Positions 45,901 to 59,063 of a DNA stretch of 64,000 nt are shown here, in pieces. A program made the translations under genes and the position numbers. Numbering within the stretch: the stretch's first letter is position 1; every line of letters begins with the position of its first letter. This stretch comes from an uncultured Sediminibacterium sp. (GTDB taxonomy: Bacteria; Bacteroidota; Bacteroidia; Chitinophagales; Chitinophagaceae). Where the stretch lies: NCBI GenBank assembly GCA_964519475.1, contig CAZFKE010000003.1, positions 98,704 through 162,703 on the forward strand, written 5' to 3'. The notes under the pieces are model-generated. The model ran no database searches, was not told where the DNA came from, and saw nothing but the letters and a program-made list of their open reading frames with translations.

Positions 45901-47244
45901 TTATAATTTTCCGGTTGCTTTTAAATAATCTACTTTGGCAATGATGGCGCTGTACAAAGCACTGATATAATTGGTTTGCGCCGTTACCAGGTCTGTTTGT
46001 GCTGCGGTGATCTCTGTATTGGATCCTGTGCCTGATTCAAATTTCTTTTTGGTCTGGTTGTATACCGTTTCTGCCAGTTTCATATTCTCTTTCTGAAAGC
46101 CCATGGTAGCCAGTGATGATTTGAAGTTGATCTTGGCCTGTTCTACTTCACCATCAATCGATATTTTCAGGTTATCCAGCTGGTTCTCAGTCTCTTTCAG
46201 TTCTATCCTGGATCTCGCAATCCTTGACGTTCTTGCAAAGCCATTGAAAATAGGGACAGACAGGTTTAGGCCTACGTAAGAAGTAGTGAACCAATCTCCT
46301 TTACCAAAAAAGGTAAACTGGTTACGCTGTGCATTTTTACTGTAACTGCCGTTTAGTGACAAAGCGGGCAGACTGCTTAACTGGTAACGTTTGATATTGA
46401 ACTCATTCAGCTTTTTTGCCAATGACAGATATTGAAAATCTTTTCTGTCGGCATACTGGTATACCGTATCGTTAGAGAAATCTTCTTTTACCTGTTCTTC
46501 TGTGATCTGGTCAACCAATACCAAACTGTCTTTTACCGGCATCCCTATCAGGGTTTTTAAACCCAGATAGCCAATAGCGATACTGTTAAGTGCTTTTATT
46601 TTTTCTGTTTGCAGGTTTGACAACTGAACAGACACTTTATCGAGGTCCAGTTTTTCTGCAAAACCGTTCTTGTATAATTCATTGGCATCGTGCTTCAGCT
46701 TTTCCAAACGTGCAATATTGGCGTCCAGCAAAGCGATCTGTGTTTTGCTCAATACCAGCTGGTAATAGATCTTGTAAATATTGGTTTTAATGGCTTCTTC
46801 TGTTACTTCCAGGTTCTTTGTCTGGAACTGGATAGAAGTGGCTCTTGCCTGCAAACCAATAAATACCTGTCCGTCAAACAAAAGCTGTTGTAACTGCAGG
46901 CTGGCGGTAGACGTATACTTTGTACCAAACTTCACCGGAATATACGTTCCAGCCGGCTGGCCAAATACCTCTCCCGGTAATAAGGAAGTAGGTATATCAA
47001 TATAATCGGTTACACCGATGCTGCCGCTGATTGTTGGCAATGCGGCAGCGGTAATTTCTCGATTGGTTTGCTCTTGGCTGCGGATGTTTAATAATGCATT
47101 TTTTACCTGGGCATTATTCTTCCGGGCATAATCAACTGCCTGCTGAATCGTAAATTCATGGGTAGTTTTTTGTGCGGCAATATTGCCTGTTATCAATATT
47201 AGGCATAGCAGCCATACCAATCTTTCGGGTCCTCTGTTTTTCAT
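45901..47244 (-). CDS. TolC family outer membrane efflux protein
   Basis: FTIQQAVDYARKNN, LSVPIFNG, FESGTGSNTEI..AQ; overlaps the TetR stop. Confidence 0.9.
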   Translation of the reverse strand: MKNRGPERLVWLLCLILITGNIAAQKTTHEFTIQQAVDYARKNNAQVKNALLNIRSQEQTNREITAAALPTISGSIGVTDYIDIPTSLLPGEVFGQPAGTYIPVKFGTKYTSTASLQLQQLLFDGQVFIGLQARATSIQFQTKNLEVTEEAIKTNIYKIYYQLVLSKTQIALLDANIARLEKLKHDANELYKNGFAEKLDLDKVSVQLSNLQTEKIKALNSIAIGYLGLKTLIGMPVKDSLVLVDQITEEQVKEDFSNDTVYQYADRKDFQYLSLAKKLNEFNIKRYQLSSLPALSLNGSYSKNAQRNQFTFFGKGDWFTTSYVGLNLSVPIFNGFARTSRIARSRIELKETENQLDNLKISIDGEVEQAKINFKSSLATMGFQKENMKLAETVYNQTKKKFESGTGSNTEITAAQTDLVTAQTNYISALYSAIIAKVDYLKATGKL

Positions 47245-47864
47245 GCGGTTATGGTTTTTAGTCTTTGTTGCTTGTATTTCTGAATTAATTTCTGGCCTTT
47301 TGCGGTAGCCAATCCGTATAAAAAATTATCTGTCATTTCATTGATAATAGCCAGTAAACCGTATTTTCCATGCGGAAAAAGTTCCTGGTTAAAGAGCAGT
47401 AAAGTAGATGCCAGCCTGAACCTTGCCATGATCTCAGAATTGATCTCCGCCCTGTACAACCCTTCAGCTTTACCCAGATCGAGATTTTCCTTCACAATGG
47501 CATACAGAAACTTATTCTTAAACTCACTGTGTTTTTTAAAAGCTTTCGGGTGGTATTTCTCCAGGTCAAAAATCACATTCGGGTTGATCTTGTTTAAGAC
47601 TTCCTGCATCATATCTACCGCCATAAATACTTCGTGGATAGGGTTTTCGCTTTTTTGTTTGTGCTGCTTGCATTCCAGCTGGCTGGCTGCAATCTCCATA
47701 TCGATCACGTCTTCTACCAGTGCGTCCTTATCGGCATAAAACTGGTAAATGGTCTTCTTACTCATACCCAGGTGATTGGCCACCTCATCCATGCTCACGC
47801 TGCGTATACCATACCGCATAAACAATTCATGGGCCTTGATCACGATTCTTTCCTGTGGTTCCAT
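47241..47864 (-). CDS. TetR/AcrR family regulator heading the efflux operon
   Basis: GIRSVSMDEVANHLGMSKKTIYQFY HTH. Start set at ATG 47864. Confidence 0.93.
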   Translation of the reverse strand: MEPQERIVIKAHELFMRYGIRSVSMDEVANHLGMSKKTIYQFYADKDALVEDVIDMEIAASQLECKQHKQKSENPIHEVFMAVDMMQEVLNKINPNVIFDLEKYHPKAFKKHSEFKNKFLYAIVKENLDLGKAEGLYRAEINSEIMARFRLASTLLLFNQELFPHGKYGLLAIINEMTDNFLYGLATAKGQKLIQKYKQQRLKTITA

Positions 47865-47889
47865 AAATAACATTAAAGGAGGGTAAAAC

Positions 47890-48149: not shown

Positions 48150-48806
48150 ATGATGAACAGCGAGCAACGAAAATTGACGGTTAAGGCTTACCTGAGAAAA
48201 TTATTGCAATATTTTTTCCAGGGCTTAATCGTACTCGCACCCATAGGGATCACTATCTGGGTCGTACTTGGGTTGTTCAATTTTGTGGATGATATCCTGC
48301 CCAATATGATTCATGCGGTGGCTCCCGACCTGCTTACCAAAGATGCCGCCGGTAACCTGAATAAAATACCCGGACTGGGTTTTATCGTAGTAATCGTTCT
48401 GGTATTGTTTGTAGGCTGGGTCTCATCGCTGTTTGTGGTGGGCCGTCTAGTGTCTGTTTTAGATACCGTGCTGGAAAAAACACCCGGCATTAAATTCATC
48501 TATTCATCTGTCAAAGATTTTCTCGAAGCTTTTGCCGGTAACAAAAAGAAATTTGATAAACCCGTAATCGTCAATATTGATGCGCCGGATGTTTGGCGAA
48601 TCGGTTTCATTACCCAGCAAAATGCGCAGGCATTTGGTATGGAAGAGCATGTAACTGTATATGTGCCACATTCTTATGCCATCTCCGGTATTACATATAT
48701 CGTTCCCAAAGAGCGTGTTCGGCTCTTACCGAATATGAGTGCTGCCGATGCAATGAAGTATACCGTATCAGGTGGGGTTACGGATGTACATGAGTCGTTT
48801 TCATGA
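48150..48806 (+). CDS. DUF502 domain membrane protein
   Basis: FFQGLIVLAPIGIT, IPGLG, PGIKFIYSSVKD, IGFIT, VYVPHSY..SG, AMKYTVSGG. Confidence 0.9.
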   Translation: MMNSEQRKLTVKAYLRKLLQYFFQGLIVLAPIGITIWVVLGLFNFVDDILPNMIHAVAPDLLTKDAAGNLNKIPGLGFIVVIVLVLFVGWVSSLFVVGRLVSVLDTVLEKTPGIKFIYSSVKDFLEAFAGNKKKFDKPVIVNIDAPDVWRIGFITQQNAQAFGMEEHVTVYVPHSYAISGITYIVPKERVRLLPNMSAADAMKYTVSGGVTDVHESFS

Positions 48807-48931
48807 GTCGTCTGACGCGCATCATGCGTTTTCCTCCTTCAATCAATTACACTTCACGATTCAGCTCTCATCAATTCCTACCGCCTCCATTTCATCGAAA
48901 TGATTTTACTTTGCCCCTTCAAGTAAGCGTA

Positions 48932-50002
48932 ATGAAACTGCATAATTTTAATTCCGGCCCTTCTATTCTGCCACAACCCGTGCTCGAAGAAGCTGCCAAA
49001 GCGATCCTCAATTTTAATGATACCGGTTTATCTGTACTGGAGATAGGCCACCGTACGCCATGGTTCCAGGAAATATTGCAGGAGGCGGTTTCTTCCGTAA
49101 AACAGTTAATGCAGCTGGATGATACTTATGAAGTATTGTTTCTTCACGGAGGCGCCACAACCCAATTTATGCAGGTGCCGATGAATTTATTGGATGAAGG
49201 CCAAACGGCGGCGTATTGCGATAACGGTATCTGGGGAAGTAAGGCAGCCAAAGAAGCCGCTTTGTTTGGAAACGCAGTGGTCGTATCTGATACATCCGAT
49301 AAAAAACATACGTATATACAAAAAGATTTTGCCATTCCTTCCAATGCGGCTTACCTGCATATTACCAGTAACAATACAGTGGAAGGAACGCAATGGCATC
49401 ATTATCCAGATACCCCTGTTCCATTGATTGCTGATATGAGCAGCGATATCTTTAGCAGGCCAGTTGATTTTACAAAATTTTCTTTGATCTATGCCGGTGC
49501 CCAAAAAAATATGGGTGCTGCAGGTGTTAATCTTGTAGTGATTAAAAAAGATATATTGGGTAAGGTAAAACGCAAGATCCCTACGATCATGAATTACCAG
49601 AAACATATTGAGGCAGGTTCATTAATGAATACGCCCCCCGTGTTTGCCGTATATGTAAGTATGCTTACCCTGCGCTGGATTATTGCAGAAGGAGGTTTAG
49701 CGGAAATGGAAAAAAGAAGCACTGAAAAAGCAGCCCTTTTATATAATACATTGGATTCACTACCTGTTTTTACCTCCCCGATTGCTAAAGAAGACCGGAG
49801 TCAGATGAATGCGGTGTTTTTTCTCAGTAATCCTTTATTGGAAGCCTCTTTTCTCGACCGCTGTAAACAAGAAGGAATGATTGGCGTAAAAGGGTATCGC
49901 ACCATCGGTGGTATACGCGTTAGCATGTACAATGCCTTGCCTCTAAGCAGTGTTCAGATCTTCTGCGATCTGATGAAGGATTTCGCACAGAAGAACGGCT
50001 AA
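48932..50002 (+). CDS. serC: Phosphoserine aminotransferase
   Basis: HNFNSGPSILP, GHRT, FLHGGAT.QF, SNNTVEG, DMSSD, YAGAQKNMG, NTPP, GYRTIGGIRVSMYNA. Start set at ATG 48932. Confidence 0.96.
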   Translation: MKLHNFNSGPSILPQPVLEEAAKAILNFNDTGLSVLEIGHRTPWFQEILQEAVSSVKQLMQLDDTYEVLFLHGGATTQFMQVPMNLLDEGQTAAYCDNGIWGSKAAKEAALFGNAVVVSDTSDKKHTYIQKDFAIPSNAAYLHITSNNTVEGTQWHHYPDTPVPLIADMSSDIFSRPVDFTKFSLIYAGAQKNMGAAGVNLVVIKKDILGKVKRKIPTIMNYQKHIEAGSLMNTPPVFAVYVSMLTLRWIIAEGGLAEMEKRSTEKAALLYNTLDSLPVFTSPIAKEDRSQMNAVFFLSNPLLEASFLDRCKQEGMIGVKGYRTIGGIRVSMYNALPLSSVQIFCDLMKDFAQKNG

Positions 50003-50040
50003 TTTGATAAGCGGCGTTCCCGTAAACGGTTTTTCCCCTA

Positions 50041-50073
50041 TTTTTGGACCAAAATACGATTTTGGTCGAAAAA
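50041..50073. promoter_or_regulatory. Candidate TetR operator abutting the start codon of the inositol-lipid operon regulator
   Basis: TTTTTGGACCAAAAT-ACG-ATTTTGGTCGAAAAA, 14/15 complementary. Confidence 0.65.
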
Positions 50074-50687
50074 TGCTAATAACAAAGGACGATATTATCA
50101 AGGATGAAATCCTGAAAGAGGCTCAGAAATTATTCCAGCAGTTTGGCGTAAAGAAAACCACCATGGAAGATATTGCCAAAGCCATGGGTAAGGGCAAGAG
50201 CACACTCTATTATTATTACTGCAGCAAGGAAGACATATTTGATGCCGTAATCCAGAAAGAAATGGATGAGGTATTTCATTTTGTACAACAGGCCGTAGAA
50301 AAAGCAGTAACCGCGGAAGAGAAATTAAAAGTATTTACCCTTTCCAAAATCAAAGCCGTACAAAAAAAAGCAAACCTCTATAAGATTGTCAGGGGTGAGA
50401 TGCAGGATACCCTTCGCTGTATGAAACACCTGCATACAGCATACGATATGCAGGAAACCCGTCTTGTAAAAGAAATTTTACTGTTCGGCATTCAAAATGG
50501 CGAGTTTGCGAAAGAGATCAAGAAGGATCTGGATATTCTTCCGTCGGTAATGGTTAGTTCATTGCGGGGGCTGGAAAGGGATCTTTTCACCAATCATAAA
50601 TACGCCAAACTGGAATCGCGCATGGAATCCATTATGGGTATTATGATGCGGGGTTTGAAAGCGGTACATTACCAGGCGGCACATTAA
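50073..50687 (+). CDS. TetR/AcrR family regulator
   Basis: FGVKKTTMEDIAKAMGKGKSTLYYYYCSKEDIF HTH. Start set at ATG 50073. Confidence 0.92.
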   Translation: MLITKDDIIKDEILKEAQKLFQQFGVKKTTMEDIAKAMGKGKSTLYYYYCSKEDIFDAVIQKEMDEVFHFVQQAVEKAVTAEEKLKVFTLSKIKAVQKKANLYKIVRGEMQDTLRCMKHLHTAYDMQETRLVKEILLFGIQNGEFAKEIKKDLDILPSVMVSSLRGLERDLFTNHKYAKLESRMESIMGIMMRGLKAVHYQAAH

Positions 50688-50727
50688 AACAGCAGGTCCT
50701 TTTTTCTGAAAGTATAAAACAAAGTAT

Positions 50728-52053
50728 ATGAAAGAGAGCATTCAATCGGCAGAGGGTAAACTGGGTATCTTGCTTCCCGGTCTTGGGGCCGTTGCCACCA
50801 CTATGATCGCGGGCGTAGCAGCGGTTAAAAAAGGGATTTCACAACCCATTGGGGCTTTAACACAAATGGGTAGTATCCGTTTGGGAAAGCGCACCGAGAA
50901 CCGTTATCCGTTAATCAAAGATTTTGTGCCTTTGGCAGCACTCAGTGATATCGCCTTTGGCGGATGGGATGTATATGCAGATAATGTATACGACGCGGCT
51001 ATGAAAGCCCGGGTGCTGGAGCCTTCTTTATTACAATCCATTAAACCGGAACTGGAAGCAATCGTTCCGATGAAAGCGGTGTTTGATACCTCTTATATCA
51101 AAAACCTGGATGGAACCCATATCAAAAAAGCAGCCACCAAATATGATCTGGCCTTGGCAGTAATGGAGGACATTGAAAATTTTCGTGATGCCAATGACTG
51201 TTCACGTGTGGTAATTGTTTGGTGTGGATCTACCGAAAAATATATTGAAGAATCTGAAGTACATCAAAGCATTGAATTTTTTGAAGAAGGATTACGAAAC
51301 AATGATCCGGCCATTGCGCCAAGCATGATCTATGCATATGCTGCTTTAAAACTGGGTGTTCCTTTTGCCAATGGCGCCCCCAACTTAACCTGTGATATAC
51401 CGGCATTGATCCAATTGGCTAAAGAAACCGGTACCCCTATCGGCGGTAAGGATTTCAAAACCGGTCAGACTTTAATGAAAACCATACTGGCGCCGGGTTT
51501 AAGTGCACGTGCCCTGGGTATCCGTGGATGGTTCTCTACCAATATCCTGGGTAACCGTGATGGTTTAGTATTGGATGATCCGGATAATTTTAAAACAAAA
51601 GAAGTATCCAAGCTGAGTGTATTGGAAGATATTTTACAACCGGACATCAATCCTGAATTATACGGAGATCTTTATCATAAAGTGCGCATCAATTATTATC
51701 CGCCGCATGGCGATAATAAAGAAAGCTGGGATAATATCGACATCTTCGGATGGCTTGGCTATTCTATGCAGATCAAGATCAATTTTCTTTGCCGCGATTC
51801 TATTTTAGCTGCTCCGATCGTATTGGACCTGGCTTTATTCATGGATCTTGCCAAACGTGCCAATATGAGTGGTATCCAGGAATGGTTATCCTTCTATTTC
51901 AAATCGCCGCAAACAGCGCCGGGCTTACGTCCTGAGCACGACATTTTTAAACAACTGATCAAATTACAGAATACCCTAAGGCATATGATGGGTGAAGACC
52001 TGATTACGCATCTGGGATTGGATTATTATCAGGATCTGGTTGAAGCCCTTTAA
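50728..52053 (+). CDS. ino1: myo-inositol-1(3)-phosphate synthase
   Basis: GLGAVAT Rossmann motif, FGGWD, VWCGSTE, NGAPN, GKDFKTGQT, NILGNRDG, KESWD, CRDSILAAP, FYFKSP. Confidence 0.96.
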   Translation: MKESIQSAEGKLGILLPGLGAVATTMIAGVAAVKKGISQPIGALTQMGSIRLGKRTENRYPLIKDFVPLAALSDIAFGGWDVYADNVYDAAMKARVLEPSLLQSIKPELEAIVPMKAVFDTSYIKNLDGTHIKKAATKYDLALAVMEDIENFRDANDCSRVVIVWCGSTEKYIEESEVHQSIEFFEEGLRNNDPAIAPSMIYAYAALKLGVPFANGAPNLTCDIPALIQLAKETGTPIGGKDFKTGQTLMKTILAPGLSARALGIRGWFSTNILGNRDGLVLDDPDNFKTKEVSKLSVLEDILQPDINPELYGDLYHKVRINYYPPHGDNKESWDNIDIFGWLGYSMQIKINFLCRDSILAAPIVLDLALFMDLAKRANMSGIQEWLSFYFKSPQTAPGLRPEHDIFKQLIKLQNTLRHMMGEDLITHLGLDYYQDLVEAL

Positions 52054-52502
52054 TGAACTTCTATAAAACCATAGCATCTATATTCGGTATCGGCTTTATC
52101 AAAGGCGGAGGATCTATAGCAGCGGCAGTTACCTGTTTGTTTTGGTTTTGGTTACAACCGGATGGAAAATTTCATCTGTACCTTTTACCTGTAACGCTTC
52201 TGATCACAGCATTAGGTGTGTGGGTTTCGAATAAGGTAGAAGCAGATTGGGGCAGTGATAGCAGCAGGGTAGTGATAGATGAGGTGGCGGGTATGTGCAT
52301 CAGCCTGTTGTTTGTGCCGGTAACCATTAAATATGTGATCATAGGGTTTGTGCTGTTTCGGTTCAATGATATTGTAAAGCCTCTGTTTATCAAAAAAGCA
52401 GAAGCATTACCCGGTGGTTGGGGTGTAATGGCAGATGATCTGTTGGCGGGTGTTTATGCCAATGTATTGTTACAGTTGATTATTTATTTAAAATGGGTTT
52501 AG
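52053..52502 (+). CDS. pgpA: PgpA-family lipid phosphate phosphatase (putative PIP phosphatase)
   Basis: VVIDEVAGM, FRFNDIVKP, GGWGVMADDLLAG; TAATG coupling to ino1. Confidence 0.9.
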   Translation: MNFYKTIASIFGIGFIKGGGSIAAAVTCLFWFWLQPDGKFHLYLLPVTLLITALGVWVSNKVEADWGSDSSRVVIDEVAGMCISLLFVPVTIKYVIIGFVLFRFNDIVKPLFIKKAEALPGGWGVMADDLLAGVYANVLLQLIIYLKWV

Positions 52503-52506
52503 ATAC

Positions 52507-52878
52507 ATGGCTACATTCATCAAAGCGCAGGCAGCATCTTTAACGGCAACGGCTGTTGATTTTACAGTTACGGTTGTGCTGAAAGAGCTGTTGGGTTGCT
52601 GGTATTTGCTGGCCAGCGTTTTAGGAACGTTCAGTGGCGGGATTGTTAATTTTTTAATGAACCGTTCCTGGGTATTCAGGGCAAAAGATAAAAAAATCCA
52701 TTTTCAGGCTATGAAATATATCATGGTGTGGATGGGTAACCTGTTACTGGTATCTGGCGGCGTATTTTTTTTAACGAATTACGGTGGTATCAGTTACCTG
52801 ATTTCCAAAATAGCCGTATCTGGTATCGTAGGTATGTTTTATAATTATGTGCTTCAAAAGCGCTTTGTGTTTAAATAA
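52507..52878 (+). CDS. GtrA family small membrane protein
   Basis: ATAVDF, GGIVNFLMNRSWVF, YNYVLQKRFVF; four TM segments. Confidence 0.88.
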   Translation: MATFIKAQAASLTATAVDFTVTVVLKELLGCWYLLASVLGTFSGGIVNFLMNRSWVFRAKDKKIHFQAMKYIMVWMGNLLLVSGGVFFLTNYGGISYLISKIAVSGIVGMFYNYVLQKRFVFK

Positions 52879-52884
52879 AGAATA

Positions 52885-55431
52885 ATGAAAAGAAAAAAGG
52901 CAAGTGGCGGATTGGTAGTATTGTTCCTTTTAATAGGGTGGGTTCAGGGCTTGGCACAAACGGTTGTGCAGGGAGAGGTTACCGATATGATCAGTAAACG
53001 GCCTTTACAATATGTAAGCGTTGTTTTAAAAGGAGGAAGGGGAACGGTTACCGATAGCCTGGGGAAATTTACCCTTCGCTCTTCCGGTGGGATTGCTGTT
53101 ATCCAGGTAACATATATAGGCTATAAAACGATCCTGAAAAATATTACACCGGGCATTTCGCAAACGATGAATTTTGAATTGGAAACCGATCCTAAGGCAA
53201 CTAATAATGTAACGGTTACCACCAATAAAAGAGCCTCGTATAAGAATAAAGGCAATCCTGCAGTAGAACTGATCAGGCGCGTTATCGAAAACAAAGCGAT
53301 CAACCGAACCGATCATTATGATTATGTGCAGTATGATCAATATGAAAAACTGGAAGTATCACTCAGTAATATAAATGATAAACTTACCAATTCAAAACTG
53401 CTTAAAAATTATAAATTTCTTTTTGAGAATAGAGATACCACCAAAGTAGAAGGCAAGTCTTTATTACCCGTTTACCTCGAAGAAACCTTATCCAAAAAAT
53501 ATTTTCGTAAAAAACCTGAAAAGACAAAAACCATTGTAACCGGCGAGAAGCGTGTAAACTTTGGCGAGTATATTGACAATGCCGGTGTAAGCAGTTACCT
53601 GAATCGTTTGATTATGGATATTGATATCTATGATAATGATATTCCTTTGTTTACGTACCAGTTTTTAAGCCCGATAGCCGATCTCGCCCCAACATTTTAT
53701 ATGTATTACATCAGGGATACCACTACGGATGCAAGCGGGCAGAAGCTGATCAAATTATATTTCACGCCACGTAATACGAATGATCTTTTGTTCAGGGGCA
53801 ATATGTGGATCACATTGGATGGTAACTATGCTGTTCGGAAAATGAGTATGTTCCTGAGCAAGAATGCCAACCTCAATTTTGTACGTGAATTACATATTGA
53901 TCTGGATTTTGAAAAAAGTGAAGACAATCGTTATCACCTGAGTAAGAGTAACGTAATGGCTGATGCAAGCGTGACCAAAAATTCGGGGAGTGGTTTTTTT
54001 GGAGAGCGAACGGTTTCGTTTAAAAACTTTAAGATCAACCAGGCAATGCCGGATACAATATACGCAGGCCCGGCAACGGTAAAGCTTGATCAATCGGATA
54101 CGCATCCGGATAGTTTCTGGCTGGCTAACCGCCATGACACCTTAACCAGGGTAGAAGCCAAAGTATATAGTAATATTGACAGCCTGGAAAAAATGCCTTC
54201 TTTCCGCAGAACGATGGCTTTTCTGACTTTCCTGTTGGCAGGTTACACTTCTTTTGGTGGATTTGAACTTGGGCCCGCCGCGGCCTTCTACAGCTTTAAT
54301 CCCGTGGAAGGTTTTAAATTAAGATTGGGAGGAAGAACCACACCCAAACTCAGTAAAAGCATTTATTTTGAAGGATATGGTGCATATGGTTTTAAAGATG
54401 AACGATGGAAATATTTTCTGAGCAGCACATACTCGCTCAATAATAAATCGATCTATGAATACCCCTTAAATTTTATAAGGGTGGGTTATCAACACGACAC
54501 CAAAATTCCCGGACAGGAATTACAGTTTGTATCGGAAGACAATTTCCTTCTGTCTTTTAAACGCGGTAAGAACGATCGCTGGTTATACAATAGTAATTTC
54601 AAATTTGATTATGTACATGAATTACCGAATCATCTTTCATATACATTAGGATTTAAGAACTGGAAACAGGAACCTGCCGGATCTATCGTATATACCAAAG
54701 TAGATAATGGTTCTACGGTGAATGTAAATAAACTGATTACCAGTGAATTCTCCGGTGAATTGCGTTGGGCACCGCATGAACAATTCTACCAGGGTAAAGT
54801 GTATCGTATCCCGATCATTAATAAATATCCCATTTTTACATTGCGTTTTATTGCCGGTGTAAAAGGGATCTTGAATAGCGAATACAATTACCAGAATATA
54901 AGTGCGAGGTTTGAGAAAAGAGCGTTCATGTCGCAGTTGGGTTACAGTGATTTAGTATTGGAAACGGGTTATATCTTCGGCAAACTGCCTTATCCTTTAA
55001 TGACTATTCACCGTGCTAACCAGACGTATGCGTATCAATTAAATTCGTATAACCTAATGAACTTTCAGGAATTTGTGAGTGATCATTTCTTTGCAATCAA
55101 TATTGATCACCATTTTAATGGCCTTTTCTTTAATCGTGTACCCTTATTGAAAAAGCTGAAATGGCGCGAAGTAATCTCGCTGAAAATGTTATATGGCGGT
55201 GTGCGCGATGAAAATAAACCGTCCAACGACCCATCGTTGATTAAATACCCGGTTATTGATGGCGGGCCAGCTACTTTCTCATTGGATAAAAAGCCATATA
55301 TAGAAGGTAGTGTAGGCATTACTAATATATTTAAGTTGATACGGGTTGACCTGGTAAAAAGGTTTAACTATCTTGAAAACCCATATGTGGCCAGTTTGGG
55401 TATCAGGGCCAGGTTCAAATTTGATTTTTAG
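52885..55431 (+). CDS. DUF5686 family protein with carboxypeptidase-regulatory-like N-domain, probable outer membrane protein
   Basis: Signal peptide, GEVTD...TDSLGKFTL...YIGY domain, NPAVELIRRVI, YDQYEK, FNPVEGFKLRLGGRT, YIEGSVGITNIFKLIRVD, terminal FDF. Confidence 0.85.
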   Translation: MKRKKASGGLVVLFLLIGWVQGLAQTVVQGEVTDMISKRPLQYVSVVLKGGRGTVTDSLGKFTLRSSGGIAVIQVTYIGYKTILKNITPGISQTMNFELETDPKATNNVTVTTNKRASYKNKGNPAVELIRRVIENKAINRTDHYDYVQYDQYEKLEVSLSNINDKLTNSKLLKNYKFLFENRDTTKVEGKSLLPVYLEETLSKKYFRKKPEKTKTIVTGEKRVNFGEYIDNAGVSSYLNRLIMDIDIYDNDIPLFTYQFLSPIADLAPTFYMYYIRDTTTDASGQKLIKLYFTPRNTNDLLFRGNMWITLDGNYAVRKMSMFLSKNANLNFVRELHIDLDFEKSEDNRYHLSKSNVMADASVTKNSGSGFFGERTVSFKNFKINQAMPDTIYAGPATVKLDQSDTHPDSFWLANRHDTLTRVEAKVYSNIDSLEKMPSFRRTMAFLTFLLAGYTSFGGFELGPAAAFYSFNPVEGFKLRLGGRTTPKLSKSIYFEGYGAYGFKDERWKYFLSSTYSLNNKSIYEYPLNFIRVGYQHDTKIPGQELQFVSEDNFLLSFKRGKNDRWLYNSNFKFDYVHELPNHLSYTLGFKNWKQEPAGSIVYTKVDNGSTVNVNKLITSEFSGELRWAPHEQFYQGKVYRIPIINKYPIFTLRFIAGVKGILNSEYNYQNISARFEKRAFMSQLGYSDLVLETGYIFGKLPYPLMTIHRANQTYAYQLNSYNLMNFQEFVSDHFFAINIDHHFNGLFFNRVPLLKKLKWREVISLKMLYGGVRDENKPSNDPSLIKYPVIDGGPATFSLDKKPYIEGSVGITNIFKLIRVDLVKRFNYLENPYVASLGIRARFKFDF

Positions 55432-55460
55432 TTATTTTATTGTTGATAAAGTATGTTTTA

Positions 55461-56786
55461 ATGGAAAGAGTTCCTCTTAGAATACGATTGCAGAAAGCGA
55501 TATATATTGTGATTGACCCGTTTGTGAAACTATTGATTAAACTGGGGTTGACCCCGAATGCAGTTACCACTATCGGTTTTGTTTTAAATGTAGGTGTGGC
55601 AGTGATTTTTGTGGCAGGCGCAGAAGAAGGCAACCGCGACGATCTTTCTTATGTAGGATGGGCAGGCGCTTTAATATTATTTGCCGGGTTATTTGATATG
55701 CTTGACGGACAGGTGGCACGCATTGGCAAAATGGGCTCTTCTTTTGGTGCATTGTACGATTCTGTACTTGACAGGTATAGCGAATTGATTATGTTTCTGG
55801 GTATTTGTTATTATCTCGTAGGGCATCATTATTTTCTCAGTTCTCTTTTTGCTTTTATTGCGCTCATCGGTTCAATGATGGTAAGTTATACAAGGGCCAG
55901 GGCGGAAGGATTGGGTATTGAATGCAAAGACGGTTTAATGCAAAGGCCCGAACGGATTATACTGATAGGCGTTTCGGCTATTGCCTGTGGGATGACCGGT
56001 TATTATATGGGAGGTGATCATAAATGGTATATATCGGGTATTTCTTTTCATGTGCTGGAAACCATGTCCATCTTCACAATCCCGATTGCAGTCATGGCCA
56101 TATTAACCAATATAACCGCATTAAAAAGATTATTGGGCGCCAAAAAAACACTGGATGCAAGAGATGGCAAACAAAATGCTCCTGAAATTTCATCTCATAA
56201 ATTAATGATGGGTATTGGCCTGGTTATGTTAACTAGCTTTGCTTTTACCAATAAGCATACATCCGTTACAATAATGCCTGAAACGGTAATGACGGAAGAA
56301 AGGGAGGGAGACCCACAGGATAGTTTTCCGGTTCCCAGCGGCAATCTTAACCAGTTATTCTACCTGCAAAGAACCACCAATACCAATACGATCATTTGTG
56401 AATTGAATATAGACAGCAAGGGAAAGCTAAATGAAGAATCACCTGTACATGTTTTCTGGATCCGTTACAATGAAGGAGGGATGCACAAAGAACTCAGTTA
56501 TATACAACGTGTGTTTGCATATGGCATAAAATCACAATCATTGGGTAATGGAACCTATAAACTACATTTTGTTTCTTACAAAAAGCAGTCACTCACGTTA
56601 ATGACATCGCCTAAAGACAATAAATACCATGTGTATGTCACCATCAATCAAAAGCAGGCATTACTGAACAGGATATTTATAAAAGTAGATGGTGGTTCTT
56701 TCTGGGCGCCCAATGTAGTATACATGGAAATGAAAGGAACAGACCCCGTTACTGGTAAAGAGCTGGTAGAAAGATTCAAACCCTGA
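55461..56786 (+). CDS. CDP-alcohol phosphatidyltransferase (PIP-synthase-like) fused to a C-terminal DUF4833-like domain
   Basis: DMLDGQVAR...G...DSVLDRY signature, MVSYTRARAE, MQRPER; after a hydrophobic linker the C-domain reads LFYLQRTTNTNTIICELN...WIRY...AYG...GGSFWAP. The DUF4833 call is by recall. Confidence 0.8.
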   Translation: MERVPLRIRLQKAIYIVIDPFVKLLIKLGLTPNAVTTIGFVLNVGVAVIFVAGAEEGNRDDLSYVGWAGALILFAGLFDMLDGQVARIGKMGSSFGALYDSVLDRYSELIMFLGICYYLVGHHYFLSSLFAFIALIGSMMVSYTRARAEGLGIECKDGLMQRPERIILIGVSAIACGMTGYYMGGDHKWYISGISFHVLETMSIFTIPIAVMAILTNITALKRLLGAKKTLDARDGKQNAPEISSHKLMMGIGLVMLTSFAFTNKHTSVTIMPETVMTEEREGDPQDSFPVPSGNLNQLFYLQRTTNTNTIICELNIDSKGKLNEESPVHVFWIRYNEGGMHKELSYIQRVFAYGIKSQSLGNGTYKLHFVSYKKQSLTLMTSPKDNKYHVYVTINQKQALLNRIFIKVDGGSFWAPNVVYMEMKGTDPVTGKELVERFKP

Positions 56787-56787
56787 T

Positions 56788-57729
56788 ATGGATAATCCGT
56801 CAGCCAAAACAAATTTGCTATTCTCAGCCAATCATATCTGGGCCTGTGCGGCTGTTTCGGCAGGTTACCTGTTGCTGTCTGCTTTCCTGATCGGGTTTAA
56901 GACAGAACAGGTTTATTTGGTTGCCATCTTCAACGCAATGTATTTTGCTTCGGGCATTACACGAAAATTTATCACCGGGTTTTCCATCTTTTTTATTTTC
57001 TGGATTCTATACGATTATATGAAGGCCTTCCCCAATTATCTCTATCAAACGGTACATATTGAAGACCTTTATCTCACAGAAAAAAGAATATTCGGTATTC
57101 ACTATGGAGGAACGGTGCTTACGCTGAATGAATATTTTCTGCAACACCCTACAACCCTGTTAGATATCCTTACCGGTATCAGCTATTTATGCTGGATGCC
57201 GGTGCCCCTGGCATTTGCGGGCTATTTATTTTTTAAAGAGCGATCTGCTTTTCTCCAGTTCTCCCTGAGTTTCTTTTTAGTTAACATGATGGGTTTTGTT
57301 ATTTACTACCTGTATCCTGCAGCACCACCATGGTATGTGCAACAACATGGGTTTCAATTTATCGCTTCCACACATGGCAATACTGCCGGGTTAGAAAGAT
57401 TTGACAGCTATGTTCATTTACCCATTTTCCAGTCATTATATACAAAAGGTTCCAATGTGTTTGCGGCTATGCCTTCATTGCATGCTTCTTACCCGGTGAT
57501 TGTTTTATATTACGGTTATAGGTTCAGGCTGGGAAAAATAAATAGTTTATTTGCCCTGCTGGTAGCCGGTATCTGGTTTTCGGCCATTTATAACAGCCAT
57601 CATTATGTATTGGATATTCTTGCCGGAACCGGCTGTGCCATTGCGGGTATTGCCTTGTTTCAATGGGCAATGAAGAAAAATGCAGCCTTCCAACGATTTT
57701 TACGAATGTTTGTTAGGGCAATAGAATAA
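56788..57729 (+). CDS. Aur1/IPC-synthase-like PAP2 membrane protein (putative inositol-phosphoceramide synthase)
   Basis: YPAAPPWY, FAAMPSLH, HHYVLD motifs; multiple TM segments. Confidence 0.88.
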   Translation: MDNPSAKTNLLFSANHIWACAAVSAGYLLLSAFLIGFKTEQVYLVAIFNAMYFASGITRKFITGFSIFFIFWILYDYMKAFPNYLYQTVHIEDLYLTEKRIFGIHYGGTVLTLNEYFLQHPTTLLDILTGISYLCWMPVPLAFAGYLFFKERSAFLQFSLSFFLVNMMGFVIYYLYPAAPPWYVQQHGFQFIASTHGNTAGLERFDSYVHLPIFQSLYTKGSNVFAAMPSLHASYPVIVLYYGYRFRLGKINSLFALLVAGIWFSAIYNSHHYVLDILAGTGCAIAGIALFQWAMKKNAAFQRFLRMFVRAIE

Positions 57730-57827: not shown

Positions 57828-59063
57828 ATGGCAATTATCCGACCCTTCAAAGCACTGCGTCCGCAGCCACAACTGGCTAAGCAGGTGGCAAGCCGTCCAT
57901 ACGATGTACTTAGCAGCGCCGAAGCAAAAATGGAAGCACAAGGCAATCATAGTTCCTTTCTGCATATTACTAAAAGTGAAATAGATCTTCCTGATACCGT
58001 AGATGTACATGATGCATCTGTGTATGAACAGGCCAAAGAAAACCTGGCGGCTTTTATACAACGCGATATTCTGTTTCGCGAATCAAAAGCGTGTTACTAT
58101 ATCTATCAATTGATCATGAATGGGAGAAGTCAGACAGGGCTTGTGTGTGTAAGCAGTGTGGATGATTATGAGAAAGATATTATTAAAAAGCACGAATTTA
58201 CCCGTCCGGAAAAAGAGAAAGACAGGATCAACCATATTAAAATTTCCGGTGCACAAACAGGCAATGTATTTCTTGCATACCGGAATCACCCGAAGATTGA
58301 TCAACTGATCAATCAGTGGCAAGAAACCAAATCGCCTGTCTACGATTTTACTGCCGATGATGGTATTCAACATACGATCTGGATCGTGAATAATGATAAA
58401 ACAGCAGATCAGATCAGTTCTGTTTTTGAAAAAGAAATTCCCTGTACCTATATAGCAGATGGCCATCACCGTGCAGCATCGGCAGCCAAAGTGCGTAAAG
58501 CATTGGGCGCAACGGCTAAAGAAGGGGCAGATTATTTCTTAACCACACTGTTTCCATCTAACCAGTTATATATCATGGATTATAACCGGGTGGTAAAAGA
58601 CCTCAATGGATTAACGCCCAAAACCTTTATCAAAGAATTAAGCAAACAGTTTACCATAGAATTGGTGAATACCGGCGCTTACCGCCCGGAAAGCCTGCAT
58701 ACATTTGGTTTGTATATTGATAAGAACTGGTATAAACTTACATCCAAACCCGGAACGTTTACAAACGATCCAATGGGCGTGCTGGATGTAACGATCCTGT
58801 CTAACAATGTGCTGGATAAATTACTGGGCATTAAAGACCAACGTACAGATAAGCGAATCGATTTTATTGGCGGTATACGGGGGCTGGAAGAGCTGGAGAA
58901 AAGAGTAGACAGTGGAGAAATGGCTGCGGCTTTCAGTTTATATCCTGTAACCATTGATCAGCTTTTTGATATTGCCGATAGCGGGAATGTAATGCCACCG
59001 AAGAGTACCTGGTTCGAACCTAAATTACGGGATGGATTACTTACGCATCTGATCTATGAATAA
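57828..59063 (+). CDS. DUF1015 family protein
   Basis: IRPFKALRP, RPYDV, SFLHI, KHEFTRPEKE.DR, YIADGHHR, MPPKSTWFEPKLRDGL. Confidence 0.92.
   Translation: MAIIRPFKALRPQPQLAKQVASRPYDVLSSAEAKMEAQGNHSSFLHITKSEIDLPDTVDVHDASVYEQAKENLAAFIQRDILFRESKACYYIYQLIMNGRSQTGLVCVSSVDDYEKDIIKKHEFTRPEKEKDRINHIKISGAQTGNVFLAYRNHPKIDQLINQWQETKSPVYDFTADDGIQHTIWIVNNDKTADQISSVFEKEIPCTYIADGHHRAASAAKVRKALGATAKEGADYFLTTLFPSNQLYIMDYNRVVKDLNGLTPKTFIKELSKQFTIELVNTGAYRPESLHTFGLYIDKNWYKLTSKPGTFTNDPMGVLDVTILSNNVLDKLLGIKDQRTDKRIDFIGGIRGLEELEKRVDSGEMAAAFSLYPVTIDQLFDIADSGNVMPPKSTWFEPKLRDGLLTHLIYE

Follow-up and report, generated by a model that had tools for sequence, protein, structure and literature searches.

Inositol lipids are produced in Bacteroides thetaiotaomicron by the gene cluster BT_1522-BT_1526 (Heaver et al. 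2022, PMC9246714; Sartorio et al. 2022, PMC8791184). Its PgpA-like protein was given the role of PIP phosphatase (Heaver 2022, PMC9246714), and deletion of BT1524 decreased IPC and increased PI (PMC8791184). BT_1527, a neighbour of the cluster, is described as 'carboxypeptidase-regulatory-like' (Heaver, PMC9246714). Near a BT-like cluster (L135) we noticed a 421-aa carboxypeptidase-regulatory-like protein, a candidate BT_1527 homologue, which has only an N-terminal domain in common with the DUF5686 protein described below.

We compared the B. thetaiotaomicron cluster with a locus from an uncultured Sediminibacterium sp.; the window is the whole 64,000-nucleotide stretch of DNA that was analysed. 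Its features are as follows.

50039..50046, + strand: putative -7 promoter box TATTTTTG, fitting TAnnTTTG and overlapping the left end of the operator
50040..50074, no strand: inverted repeat, putative TetR operator (repeat search, 16-nt arms, 94% complementary)
50073..50687, + strand: TetR-family regulator, 204 aa, first gene of the operon (PF00440, TetR_N, 51 bits)
50728..52053, + strand: myo-inositol-3-phosphate synthase (MIPS), BT_1526 counterpart (PF07994 347 bits, PF01658 114 bits)
52053..52502, + strand: PgpA-family phosphatase, predicted PIP phosphatase, BT_1525 counterpart (PF04608 131 bits)
52507..52878, + strand: GtrA-family small membrane protein, candidate PI flippase, BT_1524 counterpart (PF04138 75 bits)
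52885..55431, + strand: DUF5686 protein, 848 aa (Pfam DUF5686 188 bits, CarbopepD_reg_2 47 bits)
DUF5686 protein, N-terminal part: signal peptide 1-25, CarboxypepD_reg 28-111, beta-rich middle domain ~125-400
DUF5686 protein, C-terminal part: two helices ~409-452, predicted Omp85-type beta-barrel ~455-848 (window 54247-55431)
55461..56786, + strand: PIP synthase (PIPS) of the BT_1523 type fused to DUF4833 (CDP-OH_P_transf 60 bits, PF16117 (DUF4833) 165 bits)
56788..57729, + strand: Aur1-like PAP2, predicted phosphoinositol transferase, PI-dihydroceramide synthase-like, BT_1522 counterpart (PF14378, PAP2_3, 94 bits)

Five families (MIPS, PgpA-like, GtrA, BT_1523-type PIP synthase and Aur1-like PAP2) are shared with BT_1522-BT_1526, and the same route is predicted, G6P to Ins3P, PIP, PI and PI-dihydroceramide. 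The core is the already known Bacteroides-type inositol-lipid operon, as the initial annotation had proposed; GtrA, which it had counted as an extra component, is in fact BT_1524 of the published cluster, with a known deletion phenotype (PMC8791184). What the window operon adds to BT_1522-BT_1526 is a TetR with its operator at the head, the DUF5686 protein between GtrA and PIP synthase, and the synthase-fused DUF4833. The seven ORFs, all with family matches, lie on the + strand of window 50040-57729 in the order listed, neighbours being -1 to 40 nt apart. From the coordinates, the junctions are +40 (TetR/MIPS), -1 (MIPS/PgpA), +4 (PgpA/GtrA), +6 (GtrA/DUF5686), +8 or +29 (DUF5686/PIPS, from a TTG start or from the ATG at 55461) and +1 (PIPS::DUF4833/PAP2), and no + strand terminators were predicted at the gene junctions. 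This spacing and the absence of junction terminators suggest that the seven genes form one operon from TetR to PAP2, in agreement with the first description of the locus.

By homology, MIPS is predicted to form inositol-3-phosphate, the BT_1523-type transferase to form PIP from CDP-diacylglycerol, and the PgpA-like phosphatase to convert PIP to PI. The PIP synthase scored 388 bits against NCBIfam PIPSynBT1523 (NF052561; cut-off 350) and carries the CDP-alcohol motif DmlDGqvAR...GalyDsvlD. Homology likewise indicates that the Aur1-like PAP2 can move phosphoinositol from PI onto a second lipid, predicted to be dihydroceramide in relatives that carry serine palmitoyltransferase (SPT). The window enzyme contains the PAP2 His/Asp motifs PSLH and SHHYVLD and is 52-68% identical to its counterparts in clusters with a true SPT.

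A Caulobacter ceramide pathway, Spt-bCerS-CerR, was reportedly described by Stankeviciute et al. in 2022. Similarly, about 30 loci related to ours add an SPT (728 bits, cut-off 640), a bCerS-like gene (a 374-aa protein with a weak GNAT match), a CerR-like gene (a reductase of the NAD-epimerase family) and a hydroxylase, with the SPT, GNAT-like and reductase genes directly upstream of MIPS. In contrast, the window carries none of these three genes, and no SPT was detectable in this genome, which is 99% complete. The best scores with the SPT model were 354 and 287 bits; the 354-bit match was rejected because it is Kbl (TIGR01822, 658 bits), and the type represented by the 287-bit match sits alongside a true SPT in relatives. 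Without a detectable SPT, the last step catalyzed by PAP2 has no known acceptor here. Thus, of the earlier proposal of an inositol sphingolipid operon, the inositol-lipid enzymes stand by family match, whereas the sphingolipid half is uncertain in this strain. It is quite possible, though we hold this only tentatively, that the operon makes no inositol sphingolipid because the genome cannot make sphinganine, and that the pathway ends at PI or PAP2 uses another phosphoinositol acceptor. The low SPT-model scores in a nearly complete genome agree with this, as do the failure to find a CerR-like gene of more than 27% identity in the genome and the score of PAP2 against the NCBIfam PI-DHC synthase model NF052609 (316 bits, under the cut-off of 480). 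However, the genome does have a bCerS-like gene, which shares 48% identity with the cluster-adjacent copies in L138 and L139, and the assembly consists of 51 contigs, so that a gap is possible. Within the genus, moreover, PIPS and SPT occurred together in 8 genomes, PIPS only in 4, SPT only in 1 and neither in 28; of the four with PIPS only, three are incomplete.

Over its full length, the regulator weakly resembles MtrR and Bacillus FadR-type TetRs, and in many loci an orthologue of it (35-80% identity) adjoins the cluster. Translation starts at the ATG at 50073. A longer ORF from a TTG at 50004 received no support from homologues, and 50041, the first position of the locus as initially described, belongs to the palindrome and does not start an ORF. 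The palindrome arms occupy 50040-50055 and 50059-50074, and the 22-bp operator core GGACCAAAATACGATTTTGGTC (50046-50067) ends 5 nt before the TetR ATG. The core occurs once in the 4.07-Mb genome and is found again upstream of the gene that opens the operon in ten related loci (L049, L050, L052, L053, L055, L058, L074, L077, L083 and L106), for which the genera named are Pontibacter, Pedobacter and Chitinophaga. The -7 promoter element of Bacteroidota sigma-A is TAnnTTTG, and this motif was found directly 5' of the operator, overlapping it, in all nine related (Sediminibacterium-type) loci inspected, suggesting that TATTTTTG may act as a promoter element. The complementarity of the arms and the conservation of the core bear out the dedicated TetR with a palindromic operator that had been read from the locus. 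TetR would bind the palindrome over its own -7 box and would free the operon upon binding a ligand, which is probably lipid-like.

We then considered the two proteins of unassigned function. The AF2 model of the DUF5686 protein had a mean pLDDT of 81.9 and a pTM of 0.69. A Foldseek search with its C-terminal ~400 aa returned BamA/TamA/Sam50 at probability 1.0; matches to BamA, TamA, Sam50 and Toc75 had E values of 4e-8 to 5e-6, and the TM-score to the TamA barrel reached 0.64. The predicted barrel has 16 strands and a long conserved inward loop, and the sequence ends in ...RARFKFDF, as the relatives end alike. The Pfam Omp85 model did not match the protein, and neither Pfam nor the AF2 model revealed POTRA domains; the N-terminal domain resembles that of SusC/RagA-type receptors. 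These predictions suggest that DUF5686 is an Omp85-fold outer-membrane barrel with periplasmic N-terminal domains, and they strengthen an outer-membrane assignment first made from the C-terminal Phe.

The PIPS::DUF4833 protein is a single 448-aa ORF that is open also from a TTG at 55440, although the ATG at 55461 is the PIPS start in homologues. Numbered from 55440, PIPS spans residues 14-244, a hydrophobic linker with LMMGIGLVMLTSFAF lies at ~254-272, and DUF4833 covers residues 307-445 (window 56358-56774). The domain, earlier called 'DUF4833-like', is a genuine DUF4833 by its PF16117 score. In the AF2 model (pLDDT 86.4, DUF4833 part >90), the N-terminal half resembles the PIPS structures 6wmv, 5d92 and 6h5a (E ~1e-9). 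The structure search gave no PDB neighbour for DUF4833 and the domain has no recognisable lipid-binding fold; it is predicted to be a periplasmic beta-sandwich.

Chitinophagaceae, Pedobacter, Mucilaginibacter, Hymenobacter, Pontibacter, Rufibacter and Spirosoma share the gene order, and ceramide genes are often attached to it. In 58 informative loci, defined as encoding a close DUF5686 relative with enough flank, the order MIPS-PgpA-GtrA-DUF5686-PIPS-DUF4833-PAP2 with all six partners was found in 30, and DUF4833 adjoined DUF5686 in 42. A BT1523-type PIP synthase occurred in 19 genomes of a 401-genome class sample, adjacent to DUF4833 in 15 and to DUF5686 in 13. In a genus sample of 41 genomes, DUF4833 lay beside PIPS in 12 of 12 PIPS genomes (Fisher p = 6e-6, uncorrected for phylogeny). 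The expected co-occurrence with ino1/PIPS clusters was therefore recovered, but it is not obligatory: both proteins are missing from G063, a genome of the same family, and from two BT-like clusters, only 4 of 13 DUF4833 loci in the phylum sample lie in inositol clusters, and close DUF5686 relatives are found also in genomes without MIPS. Three genus relatives (G664, G666 and G690) keep the DUF5686-DUF4833 pair intact at the same SerC...DUF1015 locus without PIPS or SPT, L056 and L057 have it without any lipid enzyme, and one Pedobacter locus reads TetR-SPT-CerR-DUF5686-DUF4833-hydroxylase with the inositol genes absent. Copies embedded in the cluster are spread widely over the DUF5686 tree, and solitary copies are confined to a few derived clades. 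Other DUF5686 relatives, too, were seen in lipid contexts: GT2-PAP2-DUF5686-PlsC-type acyltransferase, acyl-AMP ligase-acyltransferase-DUF5686, and SIS/CBS sugar-phosphate-isomerase-like gene-TatC-DUF5686-ABC ATPase.

Since a single ancestral arrangement could have given rise to the clusters, and the co-occurrence statistics carry no phylogenetic correction, DUF5686 and DUF4833 might be passengers that are functionally unconnected to the pathway and owe their gene order to common descent. We consider this very improbable: the order is kept across lineages in which DUF5686 is only 52-60% identical, the junctions are tight, DUF4833 has repeatedly fused with and separated from two different pathway enzymes, and it adjoins PIPS in L141-L143, clusters that lost DUF5686, GtrA and PgpA. 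Taken together, these data give us good confidence in the predicted locations of DUF5686 and DUF4833 and in their functional partnership with the pathway.

What the partners do is less certain. To our knowledge, characterised Omp85 proteins all handle proteins, not lipids, the exception being the proposed lipid role of TamA-TamB. The Foldseek neighbours of DUF5686, the signal peptide on DUF4833 in the 18 loci where it is a separate gene, and the persistence of the adjacent pair without lipid enzymes (in the five cases above) would thus be consistent with an Omp85-kind protein-handling pair, comparable to a two-partner secretion system or a specialised insertase, in which the barrel exports or assembles DUF4833 or another protein; the pair would then be no more than co-regulated with lipid synthesis, for example on account of a cargo that binds or requires the lipids. 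This seems unlikely to us. In 29 of 47 loci, the hydrophobic segment ties DUF4833 covalently to an inner-membrane enzyme with six helices, so export of DUF4833 fits poorly unless the protein is cleaved; DUF5686 lacks POTRA, the part that recognises protein cargo; and its other relatives have no consistent exported neighbour, whereas lipid-enzyme neighbours recur.

The fusions can also be read to mean that DUF4833, like Kei1, is neither a catalyst nor a carrier but serves in the periplasm as a subunit or scaffold that links PI supply and hydroxylation with the PAP2 transferase, and that DUF5686 has a general outer-membrane role. Besides the 29 PIP synthase fusions, DUF4833 is fused to a membrane fatty-acid hydroxylase in P0180, follows a different CDP-alcohol transferase and GtrA in L017 and L022, and abuts PAP2 (1-nt gap in the window) or has only the hydroxylase in between. 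We doubt this explanation, however, because DUF4833 persists beside DUF5686 where all these enzymes are missing, the B. thetaiotaomicron enzymes function without it, and the interleaving of DUF5686 in the operon would be left unexplained.

We favor a model of a TetR-autoregulated inositol-lipid operon of the mycobacterial/Bacteroides route in which DUF5686 and DUF4833 handle the lipid after its synthesis; for the model as a whole, we regard the case as evenly balanced. Its biosynthetic and regulatory part is held with high confidence. GtrA, which may have PI flippase activity, would flip PI to the periplasmic leaflet, where the PAP2 active centres would lie. DUF4833, anchored at the inner membrane via its fusion to PIP synthase, would together with DUF5686 remove the lipid from the inner membrane's outer face for delivery to, or insertion into, the outer membrane. 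Lipid trafficking as the job of the two proteins is plausible and compatible with their predicted locations, but we propose it with reserve, given that B. thetaiotaomicron makes and exports inositol lipids while DUF4833 is absent from its control genomes. DUF5686 and DUF4833 are unstudied, widely conserved envelope proteins, and they are candidates for inositol-lipid handling after synthesis.

The N-terminal half of the fusion protein shares the CDP-alcohol transferase motif and fold with the actinobacterial PIP synthase PgsA1 (structures 6h59, 6wmv and 5d92), whereas the window protein has an additional hydrophobic segment and a 150-residue, predicted periplasmic DUF4833 at its C-terminus. 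By analogy only, the operon recalls yeast Aur1/Kei1, where a PAP2-type phosphoinositol transferase with PI as donor has a small accessory protein alongside; DUF4833 has no relationship to Kei1, and a soluble periplasmic domain is predicted for it, not a membrane-embedded one. With the Omp85 superfamily (BamA, TamA with TamB, TpsB/FhaC and PlpD), DUF5686 shares the predicted 16-strand barrel, the inward loop and the C-terminal aromatic residue, but it carries a SusC-type CarboxypepD_reg and a beta-rich domain instead of POTRA. TamA-TamB provides a precedent for an Omp85 barrel in lipid transport; in place of a TamB-like partner, the window has the small DUF4833 domain.

Seven co-directional ORFs occupy window positions 50073-57729, and we assigned their families with Pfam and NCBIfam models as follows.

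50073-50687, + strand: TetR regulator, with an N-terminal TetR HTH (PF00440, TetR_N, 51 bits)
50728-52053, + strand: myo-inositol-phosphate synthase, MIPS (PF07994, 347 bits; PF01658, 114 bits)
52053-52502, + strand: PgpA-family phosphatase, the predicted phosphatidylinositol-phosphate (PIP) phosphatase (PF04608, 131 bits)
52507-52878, + strand: GtrA-family membrane protein (PF04138, 75 bits)
52885-55431, + strand: 848-aa CarboxypepD_reg plus DUF5686 protein (DUF5686, 188 bits)
55440/55461-56786, + strand: PIP synthase::DUF4833 fusion (NF052561, 388 bits, cut-off 350; DUF4833, PF16117, 165 bits)
56788-57729, + strand: Aur1-like PAP2_3 protein (PAP2_3, 94 bits; NF052609, 316 bits, cut-off 480)

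These matches confirmed what the initial annotation had described, a TetR-headed inositol-lipid operon that includes DUF5686 and DUF4833. The gene-to-gene spacing is -1 to +40 nt, and terminator prediction found no + strand terminator-like site at the operon's gene junctions. The PIP synthase (PIPS) carries the CDP-alcohol motif D-x2-DG-x2-AR-x8-G-x3-D-x3-D, read in the sequence. The Aur1-like protein has the catalytic His/Asp motifs and matched NF052609, the equivalog model for phosphatidylinositol (PI)-dihydroceramide (PI-DHC) synthase, over its full length at a score under the cut-off. SerC lies upstream of the operon (48803-50002) and a DUF1015 gene downstream (57828-59063). The SerC ORF as listed, from 48803 on, extends about 43 residues N-terminally of the NCBIfam model and overlaps a DUF502 gene; its true start is probably an internal Met at about 48932. 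On the minus strand at 45901-47873, a second TetR-family gene and a gene for a TolC-like outer-membrane efflux protein overlap by 4 nt. This block, which continues with an HlyD-type adaptor in the related locus L049, is an efflux operon with no relation to the inositol-lipid operon.

We examined the region preceding TetR. An inverted repeat at 50040-50074 reaches the TetR ATG. Its 16-nt arms are 94% complementary, and its core, GGACCAAAATACGATTTTGGTC, occurs only once in the 4.07-Mb genome. The palindrome recurs at the operon head in ten related loci; the TetRs there are only 36-80% identical. It lies upstream of TetR in the loci titled Pontibacter and Pedobacter and, in two Chitinophaga loci, just upstream of the serine palmitoyltransferase (SPT) gene that opens the operon. 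The -7 promoter element of Bacteroidota is TAnnTTTG, and the left arm overlaps a match to it in all nine Sediminibacterium-type loci inspected. A palindrome situated at TetR's own promoter and kept in orthologous loci is, judged from the sequence, a putative operator, and the likeliest mechanism is that TetR would repress its own operon by promoter occlusion. We know of no description of how bacterial inositol-lipid synthesis is regulated, and the conserved TetR operator would offer a handle on this question.

The 848-aa protein was modelled with AlphaFold2 on 67 relatives (mean pLDDT 81.9, pTM 0.69). The model consists of a signal peptide, a CarboxypepD_reg beta-sandwich (residues ~25-100), a beta-rich middle domain (~125-400), two helices and a C-terminal barrel (~455-848). 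The top Foldseek matches in the PDB were all Omp85 proteins (Toc75, Sam50, BamA and TamA; probability 1.0, E 4e-8 to 5e-6), and against barrel-only targets the barrel gave TM scores of 0.5-0.64, the TamA barrel being the best at 0.64. The model thus suggests that the C-terminus is a 16-strand Omp85-type beta-barrel. The Pfam Omp85 model PF01103 gave no match to DUF5686 at E <= 0.01, and a profile search of PDB sequences found the N-terminal domain alone. An Omp85 superfamily member would be expected to carry at least one N-terminal POTRA domain, whereas no POTRA was matched in DUF5686, which has the CarboxypepD_reg and beta-rich domains there instead; its N-terminal domain resembles that of the SusC/RagA receptors. 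The C-terminal residue is aromatic throughout the family. There are four DUF5686 paralogues in the genome; two of them were scored against the operon copy and share 29-31% identity with it, and no clear theme was found in the neighbourhoods of the paralogues (contigs C9, C32 and C21). Our literature search found DUF5686 solely as a passing mention in two unrelated papers.

Distant DUF5686 relatives (33-38% identical) were seen in three contexts (related loci L041:5761-12411, L044:2030-7059, L042:7814-11968 and L045:6870-12466). The first contains GT2, PAP2 and PlsC-type acyltransferase genes, and the second an acyl-AMP ligase and an acyltransferase. The third has a SIS/CBS sugar-phosphate-isomerase-like gene and TatC on one side and an LptB-resembling ABC ATPase on the other; the labels KdsD and LptB for these neighbours are our reading of generic domain matches.

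The DUF4833 domain of the fusion was matched over the full length of its model (positions 1-138 of 138). In the structural model of the fusion (pLDDT 86.4), the N-terminal half superposes on the mycobacterial and Renibacterium PIP synthases and residues 300-448 form a confident beta-sandwich. The linker, modelled with low confidence, holds the hydrophobic stretch LMMGIGLVMLTSFAF. Because the solved PIP synthase structures end in the cytoplasm, this extra hydrophobic segment would put the fused DUF4833 in the periplasm. PIPS and DUF4833 are one ORF in 29 related loci and two ORFs in 18, and in the split form DUF4833 starts with a typical signal peptide. We infer that DUF4833 would be periplasmic in both forms. 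A fold search for DUF4833 against the PDB gave a best hit no better than E 0.2, and a PDB sequence search with the fusion found nothing past the PIPS half. DUF4833 relatives number 1,094 among 1.84 billion representative proteins, most of them 170-220 aa and standing alone. P0180, a 498-aa protein of the representative library, is a fatty-acid-hydroxylase::DUF4833 fusion, which makes the hydroxylase the second membrane lipid enzyme fused to this domain. That DUF4833 acts as a scaffold seems unlikely to us. Several genus members (genomes G670, at C3:156001-175000, locus L151; G661; G691; G686) have a second, more divergent DUF4833 gene, which lies ~8 kb from the one in the operon; in G686 it is ~13 kb from an SPT gene. 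We found no literature on DUF4833.

We asked how regularly the two DUF proteins accompany the inositol genes. Starting from DUF5686, we collected 80 genome loci with relatives at least 52% identical, whose titles name Chitinophagaceae genera, Pedobacter, Mucilaginibacter, Hymenobacter, Pontibacter, Rufibacter and Spirosoma. Flanking sequence was sufficient for judgement in 58 of them: all six partner genes were present with their order kept in 30, DUF4833 adjoined DUF5686 in 42, and 13 had no partner gene. In a tree, cluster-embedded copies occur throughout a well-supported clade of 80 sequences, and solitary copies fall in a few derived groups, mainly Mucilaginibacter and Pedobacter. The PIPS of the BT_1523 type occurred in 19 genomes of a 401-genome class sample: 15 had DUF4833 adjacent and 13 had DUF5686 adjacent. 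Three of the 19, one from the window's family and two BT-like, had neither. The co-occurrence that the initial annotation named as a check was seen from the side of PIPS, with DUF4833 adjacent in 15/19 PIPS genomes of the class and in 12/12 of a 41-genome genus sample. Starting from DUF4833, only 4 of the 13 loci in a phylum sample of 301 genomes belonged to inositol clusters. Two of the other DUF4833 loci in that sample come after a different CDP-alcohol transferase and GtrA. These are L017:7638-10540 and L022:9681-12356, both of genus code g22, where a PhyH dioxygenase gene, a gene for a CDP-alcohol phosphatidyltransferase that is not of the BT1523 type, GtrA and DUF4833 stand in a row, which by its sequence is a different head-group module also bearing GtrA and DUF4833. 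That DUF5686 and DUF4833 have no functional link to the pathway is, in our estimate, very improbable.

The pair also occurs where the pathway is missing. In the matching position between SerC and DUF1015, DUF5686 and DUF4833 were found alone in genomes G664, G666 and G690 and loci L056 and L057, TetR-MIPS-DUF5686-DUF4833 in G685 and L053, and DUF4833 alone in G674. The genus relatives (L056, L057, L145, L147, L148, L149) form a graded series at this position, from the full operon down to DUF4833, as would arise if genes had been lost, or gained, step by step at a single site. The genome G681 has a DUF4833 remnant carrying five in-frame stops. Since the pair is kept where the pathway is absent, it would be either of some value without inositol lipid or slow to decay. 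In a Ferruginibacter MAG (L080:9148-9978), PgpA and GtrA were each matched as two separate pieces and the genes for PIPS and PAP2 are absent, while DUF5686 and DUF4833 remain intact, as if the cluster were decaying. The ability of the pair to stand alone, and the fact that the Omp85 proteins characterised so far are known to act on proteins, would fit a pair that handles protein for export, but other DUF5686 family members show no consistent exported neighbour and DUF5686 lacks a POTRA domain, and we hold this explanation to be rather improbable. A family-wide rule of a translocator with adjacent exported cargo was rejected, as the downstream neighbours of 30 other DUF5686 relatives were inconsistent.

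About 30 related loci extend upstream with SPT (NF047600, 728 bits, cut-off 640), a 374-aa protein with a weak GNAT match and an NAD-epimerase-family reductase, the same pattern as the bacterial Spt-bCerS-CerR ceramide route, and in these loci a fatty-acid hydroxylase is inserted between DUF4833 and the PAP2 gene. In L077:6444-13752 (Pedobacter sp. UYP1), an operator-like palindrome is followed by TetR, an SPT-like gene, an epimerase-family reductase, DUF5686, DUF4833 and a fatty-acid hydroxylase, and inositol genes are absent; by gene content the pair is here embedded in a cluster of sphingolipid type alone. In the genus sample, PIPS and SPT occurred together in 8 genomes, PIPS only in 4, SPT only in 1 and neither in 28 (Fisher p = 4e-5, uncorrected for phylogeny), and SPT was above the NCBIfam cut-off in 8 of the 11 other genus members with PIPS.

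No SPT was detected in the window's own genome (G000; 99% complete, 51 contigs), its best NF047600 matches scoring 354 and 287 bits against the cut-off of 640. Its three alpha-oxoamine synthases (C4:125206-126285, C5:217948-219204 and C15:6902-8020) are Kbl, which gave the 354-bit match (TIGR01822, 658 bits), a BioF-like protein under its own cut-off, and a third type that relatives have besides a true SPT. Of these synthases, the 418-aa AOS2 was rejected as a divergent SPT because its counterparts occur in relatives already holding a true SPT. As no SPT was detected in the genome, a ceramide product is doubtful in this Sediminibacterium strain: either an assembly gap hides the gene, or the strain stops at PI, or the PAP2 enzyme uses another acceptor. 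A second type of bCerS-like protein, 390 aa long and unnamed by Pfam and NCBIfam, is encoded right next to the inositol cluster in L138:6980-8134 and L139:12049-13197 (family code f108); the window's genome encodes such a protein, unlinked, at C1:321247-322419 (48% identity).

To our knowledge, it has not been described how Bacteroidota carry sphingolipids and inositol lipids across from the inner to the outer membrane and its vesicles. A role of the pair in lipid handling is favoured by the fusion of DUF4833 to two different membrane lipid enzymes, by the pair's place inside two kinds of lipid operon, and by the lipid-enzyme neighbours of other DUF5686 subfamilies; we hold this reading tentatively, at somewhat below an even chance. 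If the pair handles lipid, a POTRA-less Omp85-type barrel and a small periplasmic partner, itself tethered to enzymes that synthesise lipids, would make up a Bacteroidota envelope module. Its task would be to bring specialised polar lipids to the outer membrane or insert them there, namely inositol phospholipids and sphingolipids and perhaps others. That DUF5686 and DUF4833 form such a previously unrecognised module for polar-lipid delivery is possible but doubtful; if true, an Omp85 family member would have lipid, not protein, as its substrate. The enzyme-fused DUF4833 and the interleaved Omp85-like DUF5686 are two concrete knock-out targets and would yield functions for two DUF families. If the pair is unrelated to lipid transport, the finding shrinks to a further example of a known operon. 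Taken together with TetR, the pair gives a concrete, testable proposal for the post-synthetic handling of inositol lipids, one built on genomic data and structure prediction.

Finally, we compared the operon with BT_1522-1526 of B. thetaiotaomicron, characterised as PI-DHC synthase, PIP synthase, the GtrA protein BT_1524, a PgpA-like PIP phosphatase and MIPS (PMC9246714, PMC8791184). In gut Bacteroides, inositol lipids and sphingolipids play a part in capsule expression, in resistance to antimicrobial peptides and in colonisation of the host (PMC9246714). Deletion of BT_1524 lowered inositol phosphoceramide (IPC) and raised PI in one study (PMC8791184), whereas a TLC phenotype was absent in the other (PMC9246714). 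The idea that BT_1527, the neighbour of the cluster noted by Heaver, is a DUF5686 protein found no support in the class sample: no DUF5686 lies within 10 kb of its two BT-like clusters, L135 and L136, and the 421-aa CarboxypepD_reg protein close to L135 aligns with DUF5686 over residues 35-125 and nowhere else. The B. thetaiotaomicron genome does hold a DUF5686 somewhere. MIPS, the BT_1523-type PIPS, the PgpA-family phosphatase and GtrA are common to both clusters; since BT_1524 is a GtrA protein, GtrA belongs to the known cluster and is no addition to it. The biosynthetic core of the operon is thus already known, and the interpretation given in the initial annotation is partly supported; what would be new relative to BT_1522-1526 is the conserved, operator-bearing TetR, the predicted POTRA-less Omp85-like barrel and the enzyme-fused, probably periplasmic DUF4833 domain.
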